Below are positions 18,158-19,295 of a stretch of DNA of 64,000 bases, in pieces. The notes under the pieces are model-generated. The model was not told the origin of the DNA and did no database searches. It saw only the letters and a list, made by a program, of their open reading frames with translations. The stretch is from positions 187,587 to 251,586 of the forward strand of contig CAAGCY010000013.1 in assembly GCA_900768465.1 (NCBI GenBank). Direction: 5' to 3'. Both the position numbers and the translations under genes were made by a program. The DNA is from Alphaproteobacteria bacterium. GTDB lineage: Bacteria > Pseudomonadota > Alphaproteobacteria > CAAGCB01 > CAG-977. Numbering within the stretch: the stretch's first letter is position 1; each line of letters opens with the position of its first letter.

Positions 18158-18190
18158 AACTCCTTGTTAAACAAAACAAGGAGTTTTTTT
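18158..18190 (+). terminator. strong rho-independent terminator whose 3' arm contains the Shine-Dalgarno of the next gene
   Basis: AACUCCUUGUU-aaacaa-AACAAGGAGUU followed by UUUUUUU. AAGGAG sits 9 nt before the ATG at 18193. Confidence 0.7.
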
Positions 18191-18192
18191 CC

Positions 18193-18777
18193 ATGGAAGA
18201 CAAATACGTTCACGCCAAACGCAAACGCCCGAATGCCGGCAACGGTCTTAACTTTCTGTCCCAACAGGTCAAGGCGCAGGCGGCGCAAGGCAAGTTCGCT
18301 TTCGATAAAATCAACGGCTTTACGCTGACGGAAGTCGAATACAAAATGCCGCCCAAGCAAACGCGTGAAAAACGCCGTGAAGAATTCAAACGCGAGGTGC
18401 GCCCCAAGTTTTTGAAGTATTTGGCGGAAAATTTTGAACAGGATTTGCGCGCCATCGGAATCGGCGATGAGGGGCTGGAACAAATGCGCAAAGGCCGCAG
18501 CGTCAACGGCTACAACGTGCATCACATGCACCCCATTGCGGGCGGCGGCAAAAACGATTTTTCGAACTTGATTTTAATGCCGATTCCGCCGCATGACGAA
18601 CTGCATCACTTGGTCATCGATCCTCAAATCAAGGACAAAAAAGTGCAAGACGGGCTTAAAATCAAGATTCCGATGTGCGGCGACAGGGTTTGGAAACGTC
18701 CCGCCAACAAATACGAACGGCTGAACACGACCGTCAACGCCGCGGTTCTGGCAAAACAAATGCAGGGCGGACGATAA
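18193..18777 (+). CDS. small basic HNH (colicin-DNase-type) nuclease-family protein, paralog 4
   Basis: NGYNVHHMHPIAGGGKNDFSNLILMPIPPHDELHHLV. It is similar throughout to paralogs 1-3. The tracked ORF 17635..18777 is an artefactual 5' extension across the DTW gene. Confidence 0.6.
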   Translation: MEDKYVHAKRKRPNAGNGLNFLSQQVKAQAAQGKFAFDKINGFTLTEVEYKMPPKQTREKRREEFKREVRPKFLKYLAENFEQDLRAIGIGDEGLEQMRKGRSVNGYNVHHMHPIAGGGKNDFSNLILMPIPPHDELHHLVIDPQIKDKKVQDGLKIKIPMCGDRVWKRPANKYERLNTTVNAAVLAKQMQGGR

Positions 18778-18848
18778 AAAGCCTTGCCGAACGGCTTGGC
18801 TTTGGCTAAACTGTCAGATAACGTTTTAACCGTTTTGGGAATTGCGAA

Positions 18849-19295
18849 ATGATTGAAGATATTATCAAAAAACTGTCAGACCCCGCCGAAGGCGCCATGA
18901 TTGTCCGCCCCGCGTCCAGCAAAGATTTGGCGCAGTGCCAGAAAGACATGGCTGAAATCGGATTGCACCCGATTCCGCAGGGCTACATCGACTTTTTGCG
19001 CGAAGTCAACGGCTTTGCATGGAACGGTATTGAATTTTACAGCACCGACAACGTAACCGATCCCGAAAGCAACTATACGCTGATTGACATTGTCACGGCG
19101 AACGAAGATTTCGCGGATTACAACGAAGAATTGGCTTCGTGCGTTTTGTTGGGACGCGCGGACGATGATTTGTACGTCTACAACACCGACAACGAAAAAT
19201 ACGAAGTGCTGGACTTTACGGGACACGACGTTATGGAAGAACACGACGCTTTCGACGCTTTGTTCGAATCCGTCGTTGAACCCCGCATGCTGTAA
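18849..19295 (+). CDS. SUKH/SMI1-KNR4-like acidic protein, a putative immunity protein for the adjacent HNH nuclease
   Basis: 148 aa, highly acidic. IGLHPIPQGYIDFLREVNGFAWNG matches the LP..Y..FL...NG signature of SMI1/KNR4 (SUKH-1). It lies immediately downstream of paralog 4. Confidence 0.5.
   Translation: MIEDIIKKLSDPAEGAMIVRPASSKDLAQCQKDMAEIGLHPIPQGYIDFLREVNGFAWNGIEFYSTDNVTDPESNYTLIDIVTANEDFADYNEELASCVLLGRADDDLYVYNTDNEKYEVLDFTGHDVMEEHDAFDALFESVVEPRML

Follow-up and report, generated by a model that had tools for sequence, protein, structure and literature searches.

The locus examined here raises a two-part question: is a short gene for a basic HNH nuclease, followed directly by a gene for a highly acidic protein, a toxin gene beside its immunity gene, and what controls the expression of the two? 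Both genes lie in a 64,000-nt stretch of contig CAAGCY010000013.1 from an Alphaproteobacteria bacterium, the whole of which was analysed and is called the window below. The window encodes four HNH paralogs (HNH1 to HNH4; mutual identity 34-48%, pI 9.8-10.3), and the fourth is followed after 71 nt by the open reading frame (ORF) of a 148-aa protein with 33 acidic (D+E) and 9 basic (K+R) residues and a pI of 4.05 (Table 1). A first-pass annotation of the DNA had placed both ORFs at these coordinates and read them as toxin and immunity protein. The present analysis favours, on balance, a toxin/immunity pair of the YhhZ-YrhA type for HNH4 and the acidic protein, with the mechanism proposed below in full, including promoter, terminator and cross-protection of the paralogs. 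On the parts of this reading confidence differs: we are highly confident that both proteins are correctly identified, and it is likely that they act as nuclease and inhibitor. The toxin/immunity reading is well supported because the homology of both proteins coincides with a near-obligate pairing of their genes. Homologies, both folds, pairing, synteny, promoter-like motifs and in silico RNA pairing were all computed here.

The acidic protein matches the NCBIfam model NF038335 (YrhA) at 100 bits, against a cut-off of 55, over residues 15-144 of 148. Its Pfam scores are each slightly under threshold, namely SMI1_KNR4 (23.7; cut-off 25.4), SUKH_5 (22.2; 27) and SUKH_6 (21.6; 27). Thus the SUKH identity that had been predicted from the letters held at the level of the YrhA family, whereas SMI1_KNR4 (PF09346), the model named for it, fell short of its own threshold. 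Precomputed PF09346, PF14567 or PF14568 annotation is carried by many of 114 homologues, including many relatives 45-85% identical, and two of the 114 bear the NCBI label 'YrhA family protein'. The segment IGLHPIPQGYIDFLREVNGFAWNG, from which the SUKH assignment had been made, falls within the Pfam SMI1_KNR4 match (residues 21-126), and the corresponding block of the family profile aligns with the SUKH structure 2icg. Single-sequence and profile searches of PDB sequences gave weak or motif-level matches only for both proteins, so a fold comparison was needed. An AlphaFold model of the acidic protein built from a 46-sequence input reached a predicted local distance difference test (pLDDT) score of 95.6, and its best five Foldseek matches in the PDB were 2prv (YobK; E = 2e-5, TM 0.67), 3d5p (BF1740), 2icg (Lin2918), 2pag (PSPTO_5518) and 3ffv (Syd), the same five structures that define the SUKH fold (Zhang, Iyer and Aravind 2011, PMC3113570). 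Assignment of the predicted protein to the YrhA family of the SUKH superfamily is secure because the NCBIfam match, the near-threshold Pfam matches and annotations, and the matches of the modelled fold agree.

The four HNH paralogs share a GYNVHH...GGG.N.F.N...H...H motif that is mostly invariant in a 25-sequence family alignment. The catalytic motif (HH...N...N...H) is intact: N108, H110, H111, N121 and N125 are invariant in 25/25; H134 and H138 do not vary among the four window paralogs and reach at least 90% conservation across the 25 aligned sequences. The HNH4 domain is modelled with the beta-beta-alpha-metal fold. Residues 1-37, which are basic and contain a conserved YxHxKR, and a C-terminal helix that closes with an invariant GR are both family-specific and modelled with low confidence; these two extensions are confined to the alphaproteobacterial family, and the toxin relatives have neither. 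A family profile searched against 1.84 billion representative proteins (E <= 0.001) matched 1119 proteins. Matches outside the stand-alone family span profile positions ~44-175, and in most of those listed the core forms the extreme C-terminus of a 260-700-aa protein. In 8 of the 10 relatives scanned with Pfam, the N-terminal region was recognizable as LXG (2), Tox-PAAR-like (2), PT-HINT, PT-TG, RHS or a Mu-portal fragment. A toxin core placed C-terminally behind such domains is the polymorphic-toxin architecture (PMC3482391), and by homology the HNH core is predicted to belong to a bona fide polymorphic-toxin C-terminal domain family. The alignment with the C-terminal domain of Escherichia coli K-12 YhhZ (hhalign, 99.2%; E = 3e-19; 30% identity over 127 columns) pairs family-profile positions 44-175 with YhhZ 255-383, and so covers the whole toxin core beyond the HNH motif. 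A 628-aa protein of an SPbeta-like phage aligns with the HNH4 family at 99.5% (hhalign). A homing-endonuclease or prophage reading was rejected, as phage and plasmid collections held no close relative of the alphaproteobacterial genes and no mobility sign for them; the matches there were distant toxin-domain relatives only (SPbeta-like phages and plasmids of Bacillus, Cytobacillus, Listeria and Photobacterium).

The gene pairing was surveyed by scanning metagenome contigs with 19 aligned toxin C-terminal domains, which yielded 80 loci; at 77 of these an ORF of at least 80 aa starts no more than 300 nt past the toxin stop codon. The downstream ORFs are mostly 140-160 aa long and mostly begin 10-45 nt past the stop. 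A hidden Markov model of YrhA, built only from the family of the window protein, matches 75 of the 77, 68 of them at E <= 1e-10; of the two exceptions, one ORF looks like a transposase and the other is itself part of the toxin domain. The same arrangement recurs elsewhere. In E. coli K-12, yrhA lies directly downstream of yhhZ, with its start within the last part of that gene. It is interrupted by IS1, and its first fragment aligns with the window YrhA family (hhalign, 92.7%; E = 4e-7); of 5426 complete E. coli genomes, 3807 have the yhhZ-yrhA pair. A Bacillota metagenome-assembled genome (MAG) carries in a row DUF4280 (PAAR-like), VgrG-like, stand-alone 199-aa HNH and SUKH genes, an HNH-YrhA pair occurs in an Enterobacter pulveris genome, and on a Photobacterium plasmid one is flanked by Rhs and Hcp genes. 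In Bacillus phage SPR (12805-15162), and likewise in six further SPbeta-like phages, the gene of a 628-aa protein with the HNH toxin domain at its C-terminus precedes a YrhA-family gene of 152 aa. By these homologies the window pair is a specific HNH toxin clade beside its specific immunity clade, beyond a generic HNH gene next to a SUKH gene. The near-obligate pairing also gives a clear predicted function to the poorly studied yhhZ-yrhA of E. coli. SPbeta itself was not among the phage matches, and the HNH domain was for that reason not equated with YokI of B. subtilis 168/3610, a protein that has been tested experimentally. Treponema and termite-gut contigs (loci L011-L014 of those compared) also carry YrhA-family genes, at 50-57% identity to the window protein, without an HNH neighbour; they look like orphan immunity-type genes and are no evidence against the HNH-YrhA pairing.

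Comparison with described systems places the pair in a recognizable kind. Both components are homologous to E. coli K-12 yhhZ-yrhA, in the same order of toxin then immunity gene, and both are fixed single-copy chromosomal pairs. YhhZ, an Hcp1-family polymorphic toxin with a C-terminal HNH domain, typifies 'group 32' of the His-Me finger nucleases (Jablonska et al. 2017, PMC5714182). Unlike YhhZ, which has an N-terminal Hcp domain (the tube of type VI secretion systems, T6SS), the window HNH proteins stand alone and carry a basic extension of 40 aa at the N-terminus and the helix with its final GR at the C-terminus, and whereas E. coli has one toxin per immunity gene, the window clade has four or more toxins per YrhA gene. 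A single system of this general type with experimental work behind it was found, Hcp-ET1/ETi1 of Shiga toxin-producing E. coli (Ma et al. 2017), likened to the window pair by description only: as outlined in reviews (PMC6099711, PMC6730261), Hcp is joined to a predicted HNH-DNase, which breaks down the DNA of target cells and against which a downstream immunity protein protects by neutralizing it. Delivery is T6SS-dependent, whereas the window holds no T6SS genes. SUKH superfamily proteins (Smi1/Knr4, YobK, Syd; PMC3113570, PMC3482391) share with the window YrhA both the fold and the position immediately after an HNH-fold nuclease toxin. Colicin E-type DNase/Im pairs (E7/Im7, E9/Im9) differ in having a four-helix Im protein rather than the alpha+beta SUKH fold, and in their receptor-binding and translocation domains, lysis gene and plasmid context, all absent from the window pair. 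With polymorphic toxin systems (Zhang et al. 2012, PMC3482391) the window family shares a toxin domain common to multi-domain secreted toxins, but it departs from them on three tested features: a trafficking domain is absent, the toxins do not each have an immunity gene, and there is no polymorphism. The pair itself is of the YhhZ/YrhA HNH-toxin/SUKH-immunity kind; its basic reading is not new, and the unusual twist is the ratio of many toxins to one inhibitor.

No Rfam, PADLOC or mobile-element context competes with the toxin/immunity reading. An anti-phage role, in which the HNH nucleases would be held inactive by YrhA and released on infection to defend the cell or abort the infection, has in its favour that HNH nucleases are common defence effectors, that the structural neighbours include Cas8-HNH, retron HNH, PtuB and McrA, and that toxin plus inhibitor follows a logic akin to toxin-antitoxin defence. 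However, PADLOC returned no defence-family match for any of five proteins, the neighbours are housekeeping genes rather than a defence island, and homologues are fused to secretion or trafficking domains, not to sensors; we regard such a role as extremely improbable.

Expression of HNH4 had been the second subject of the first-pass annotation, which described an 11-bp-stem terminator with a U7 run after the DTW gene, placed the AAGGAG Shine-Dalgarno sequence in its 3' arm 9 nt before the nuclease ATG, and saw in this a built-in brake on translation. The elements are all present. The hairpin starts 35 nt past the DTW stop codon, its stem is perfect and reaches 12 bp when the basal A-U pairs are counted, and the T7 run occupies 18184-18190. 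The hairpin alone folds at -14.7 kcal/mol, the intergenic region is more stable than its shuffles (z = -3.6), and the AUG is additionally covered by an outer helix (18150-18154 with 18192-18196). In modelled read-through RNA starting upstream of the hairpin, AAGGAG has a P(unpaired) of 0.00, in line with the predicted occlusion. Six perfect hairpins with stems of at least 11 bp occur in the window, against 0.3 expected from dinucleotide shuffles. All six have the A-tract/stem/T-tract form, and four, the hairpin at 18157 included, lie just past a gene end in a comparison with the ORF list; they are, as judged from form and position, the intrinsic terminators of this genome. The others are at 12824-12856, 29138-29165, 8211, 54716 and 57415. 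Two window terminators have CCTCCG/CGGAGG stems with no gene following, so 3' arms containing GGAGG are recurrent among the terminators of this genome. The hairpin before HNH4 shares with Rho-independent terminators in general, and with these five sites, the A-tract/stem/T-tract form after a stop codon, but two things make it unique in the window: its 3' arm supplies the following gene's only Shine-Dalgarno sequence, and its 5' arm overlaps a conserved -10-like box. In the 64 kb it is the only hairpin on either strand with a Shine-Dalgarno-like 3' arm and a T-run directly before a long ORF.

The -10-like box belongs to a conserved promoter-like element upstream of HNH4 orthologs. The GACAAAA half-box was present in 22 of the 22 upstream regions, despite protein identities of 49-58%, and TTGNCA in all of them except those of the close relatives L019 and L022. 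Where TTGNCA is present, TGnTAnnnT follows 11-12 nt past it (12 nt in the window), and strain variants (L017, L018, L007) alter only the 'n' positions of TGnTAnnnT. The element is kept whatever gene lies upstream, which is the DTW gene in the window and a TM1266-like gene in L008, L021 and L031; HNH4 therefore very probably has its own transcription signals. The -10-like box overlaps the 5' arm of the hairpin, so HNH4's own mRNA would probably be made without that arm, and Shine-Dalgarno occlusion would then probably affect read-through RNA only. An extended -10 promoter with a transcription start at about 18167-18170 is a plausible though uncertain assignment. In L031 and in the L023-L028 group, the -10-like hexamer, read from the sequences, lies in the hairpin loop and the 5' arm in the spacer. 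We note that a GACAAAAAAT...TTTGTCAAAA box with TGnTAnnnT recurs upstream of the HNH4 orthologs (regions L019-L046), with an unusual spacing of 11-12 nt between TTGNCA and TAnnnT. A simple dimer operator for the GACAAA...TTTGTC repeat was rejected, as the spacing of the half-sites varies between species.

These observations bear on the brake, which in its full form holds that HNH4 has no promoter of its own, is expressed by leak-through of the DTW terminator, and is kept silent by a hairpin that hides the Shine-Dalgarno sequence, a dual transcriptional and translational attenuator acting until some signal melts it. All modelled read-through RNAs have the Shine-Dalgarno sequence paired throughout and the AUG for the most part, the window has no second such element, and the architecture recurs with a different stem in UBA3864 (L031), where AACCTCCCGT/ACGGGAGGTT is followed by T7 and ATG. 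The recurrence in UBA3864 is modest evidence that the arrangement may be tolerated or favoured. The Shine-Dalgarno sequence lies in the 3' arm in two lineages only, however, namely UBA3864 and the species group of the window; in L023-L028 the Shine-Dalgarno sequence follows the hairpin and T-run instead of being part of them, and the remaining orthologs have no clear comparable element. Against the brake stand also the TTGNCA-12-TGnTAnnnT box, found at nearly all orthologs and behind different upstream genes, and the CCTCC/GGAGG-type stems of window terminators that precede no gene; no alternative anti-terminator fold was found, and an Rfam scan of 12000-21000 returned no family, a ligand-sensing one included. 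Strain variants of the hairpin affect loop-proximal pairs only, or make a G-U pair, with no real covariation, and the Shine-Dalgarno sequence and the -10-like box impose constraints of their own on its invariant core. We consider the brake model unlikely. As a designed feature the proposed brake is poorly supported, and the circumstance that had been named as its refutation, a nuclease promoter inside or after the hairpin, is matched by the candidate element that overlaps the 5' arm in the window. We read the hairpin as a terminator that would serve for insulation and, by overlapping the Shine-Dalgarno sequence, would silence read-through RNA as an added benefit, rather than as a dedicated conserved brake.

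A second promoter-like element stands between the two genes. Just past the HNH4 stop codon, TTGNNG-17-TAnnn(T) is present in 16 of 16 intergenic regions, elsewhere as TTGAAG-17-TAAAAT or TAGAAT and similar, and only a weak hairpin, read from the sequences, lies between HNH4 and yrhA. Its conservation argues that yrhA, together with queA, would have its own promoter, independent of the toxin gene; adjacency of yrhA and queA is kept in all loci that have both genes. Related signals occur at the other HNH locus: a ATTTTTTGTCAAAA box and an extended -10 (TG-T/G-TATACT) with a proper -35 precede most HNH3-operon orthologs (window 14700-14770, minus strand). The shared box may be a common regulatory element of the HNH genes. 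TTG[ACT]CAAAA boxes in the window are not specific to HNH genes. On the minus strand at 18144-18115, a consensus scan finds a sigma-70-like site (TTGACA, 18 nt, TATTTT) that uses the right half of the inverted repeat and would give antisense transcription into the 3' end of the DTW gene, possibly by chance.

From these results we infer the following mechanism. HNH4 would be a basic stand-alone HNH (beta-beta-alpha-metal) DNase toxin domain, toxic in its uninhibited form, and YrhA would bind and block it in the cytoplasm of the producer. The hairpin would act first of all as the intrinsic terminator of the DTW gene, insulating the toxin gene from upstream transcription, and, with the Shine-Dalgarno sequence forming the 3' arm of the hairpin, any read-through RNA would be translationally silent as well. 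The start of productive HNH4 mRNA is most probably set by the -10-like element over the 5' arm; such an mRNA would lack that arm and have its Shine-Dalgarno sequence largely free. Transcription of yrhA with queA from the sigma-70-type promoter, to which HNH4 transcripts reading into yrhA would add, is proposed to keep the inhibitor always at least as abundant as the nuclease. With a terminator over a promoter-like box and an immunity gene that has its own promoter and is tied to a housekeeping gene, the layout would be a compact means to that end. The findings do not overturn current ideas, and all function described here is inferred.

Conservation of the locus across its clade suggests which proteins YrhA protects against. 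The stand-alone HNH family is confined to MAGs of Alphaproteobacteria from gut, rumen and hindgut, where a genome has 4 to about 8 HNH paralogs and, in the DNA examined, one YrhA gene. The order PDT-OMP-TerC-(DUF1150)-DTW-HNH4-YrhA-QueA is kept in about 20 species-level genomes of uncultured gut Alphaproteobacteria, and two more distant genomes, with QueA 53-54% identical, have a tandem HNH-HNH-YrhA-QueA. HNH4 is 93-98% identical in named MAGs of uncultured Alphaproteobacteria (for example, HGM16788, UBA2903 and UBA6411), the same YrhA protein is found, identical in sequence, on many human-gut metagenome contigs with the gene order unchanged, and in all examined contigs of the species the order is identical, with neither strain-level polymorphism nor cassette exchange. 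Between species, YrhA is 75-85% identical, QueA 71-77%, DTW 70-81% and HNH4 49-58%. YrhA is thus the most conserved protein of the neighbourhood, which inverts the expectation: SUKH genes are typically variable, rapidly diversifying and often in multi-copy poly-immunity arrays (PMC3113570), whereas the window YrhA is single copy and in an operon with queA. No further HNH or YrhA copies or remnants were found in a six-frame translation of the window, and the paralog clusters of related genomes, third-locus paralogs included, have no consistent downstream ORF and no YrhA gene. In the rumen MAG L047, HNH4 has been lost and the yrhA promoter, yrhA, queA and the other HNH paralogs are retained. The single YrhA, the paralog loci without immunity genes, the high conservation of YrhA and its retention where HNH4 is lost suggest that one YrhA would protect against all HNH paralogs, most probably all four (or more). 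This fits the earlier suggestion that the tandem array HNH1-3 relies on the single acidic gene. Cross-paralog immunity is directly testable in a core-like module whose paralogs lack immunity genes and whose one inhibitor is more conserved than QueA; if true, such pan-immunity would invert the usual one-toxin/many-immunities logic.

Other members of the family were seen beside this locus. Related genomes (L049, L054-L074; for example, L049 5004-6729) have an extra locus with one or two larger HNH paralogs of ~250-300 aa with a C-terminal extension, followed in two of them (L049, L054) by a 798-aa PAS/histidine-kinase-like gene; none was recovered for the window species. The synteny HNH1-3/PDT/TerC/DTW/HNH4/YrhA/QueA also appears at 85-97% identity on CAVCSV010000002.1 (L018), titled Limosilactobacillus gorillae, probably a mis-binned or mislabelled MAG contig.

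Several observations weigh against the toxin/immunity mechanism proposed here. The SMI1_KNR4 score of the acidic protein is below the gathering threshold, and HNH4 likewise scores 19.5 bits against Pfam HNH (PF01844), under the threshold of 21.4, with lower scores or no match for the other paralogs; as most confirmed toxin relatives also score below threshold, Pfam HNH is an insensitive model for this clade. HNH4 has no Pfam domain N-terminal to its core and no recognizable trafficking domain or signal peptide, and the window holds no genes for the T6SS, type VII secretion or contact-dependent inhibition that could export the nucleases. HNH1-3, three of the four window paralogs, lack an adjacent immunity gene and so depart from the rule of 75/77. 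HNH4 is 88-98% identical among close relatives in fixed synteny, which is core-gene-like and unlike polymorphic toxins. As to expression, a canonical -35 was looked for at 17 nt from the HNH4 -10-like box and none was found, which also favours the brake model, and even RNA that begins within the hairpin (starts at 18165-18170; P(unpaired) 0.08-0.99 per base, mostly 0.2-0.5) has no more than a partly open Shine-Dalgarno sequence, owing to weak local GGAG/UUCC pairing.

The core-gene-like conservation would also suit vertically inherited cellular or secreted enzymes, domesticated for DNA scavenging, uptake or processing, or programmed lysis, with YrhA as a general intracellular inhibitor or regulator. 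This would account for DTW-HNH-YrhA-QueA synteny that extends, as HNH-HNH-YrhA-QueA, even to genomes with QueA at 53-54% identity, for the uniformity among strains, for a YrhA that is both strongly conserved and joined to queA, for the excess of paralogs over YrhA genes, and for family-specific N- and C-terminal extensions that toxin relatives do not have. Yet every out-of-clade relative that can be placed in context is a classical toxin/immunity module, and the family has kept its catalytic residues and the strict adjacency of toxin and inhibitor. Moreover, E. coli yhhZ-yrhA is likewise fixed and YhhZ is nevertheless classed as a T6SS effector (PMC5714182), so a fixed position is compatible with a toxin role. 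Domesticated enzymes of this sort are quite improbable, in our judgement. The toxin/immunity reading leaves room for a bolder version, put forward tentatively and as a possibility short of probable: the HNH domain may have been domesticated, in a clade of order rank made up of uncultured Alphaproteobacteria from gut and rumen, as 4 to about 8 vertically inherited stand-alone nucleases with their own YxHxKR/GR signals, all policed by one ultra-conserved YrhA 'pan-immunity' protein hard-wired to yrhA-queA, and maybe exported by a route new to this toxin family.

Table 1 Features of the HNH4-yrhA locus and the HNH1-3 operon (window coordinates)
Feature	Position	Strand	Remarks
HNH paralogs 1-3, tandem operon	12875-13435, 13450-14010, 14012-14677 (12875..14677)	-	Without own immunity gene
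DTW-domain gene (tRNA-modification family)	17486..18121	+	Pfam DTW 134 bits; stop codon 18119-18121
AT-rich box GACAAAATTTTCTTTCTTTGTCAAAA, GACAAA...TTTGTC inverted repeat	18121..18146	+	TTGTCA at 18138-18143; conserved upstream of HNH4 orthologs; putative promoter/operator
Extended -10-like TGT-TAAACT	18153..18161	+	Overlaps 5' arm of hairpin
Hairpin and T-run	18157..18190	+	5' arm 18157-18168 (AAACTCCTTGTT), loop 18169-18174 (6 nt), 3' arm 18175-18186 (AACAAGGAGTTT)
Shine-Dalgarno AAGGAG of HNH4	18178..18183	+	Within 3' arm, 9 nt before ATG at 18193
HNH4, YhhZ-type stand-alone HNH (His-Me finger) nuclease toxin domain (predicted)	18193..18777	+	194 aa; core residues ~38-170; stop codon 18775-18777
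Putative sigma-70-type promoter for yrhA-queA	18784..18812	+	TTGCCG 18784-18789, 17 nt, TAAACT 18807-18812; directly past HNH4 stop
yrhA, YrhA-family SUKH protein, presumed immunity protein (inhibitor)	18849..19295	+	NCBIfam NF038335 and predicted fold
queA	19301..20353	+	Starts 5 nt past yrhA; probably co-transcribed with yrhA

The HNH3-2-1 operon ends at the terminator at 12824-12856, beyond which lies a convergent gene. The other genes of the window are those of an ordinary chromosome, including MutS, GlnD, MurJ, iPGM, AddAB-like, BipA and MacAB-TolC. A type IVb-pilus-like cluster (TcpQ, secretin, PAP_PilO, T2SSE ATPase, T2SSF) occupies window positions 1-12805, upstream of HNH1-3 and convergent to their operon; in other species, this adjacency showed no conservation at the sequence level. 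Its last genes encode a 1024-aa protein (8846-11920) with a prepilin-signal-like N-terminus, RGALMVEAIALLGL, and then a 290-aa protein. A conserved gene pair occupies window 23381-24410, and the records of the matching contigs are without Pfam matches. Its first member (23381-23740) encodes a very acidic 119-aa protein with no Pfam family on scanning, and the second, which overlaps it, a protein of ~227-247 aa.

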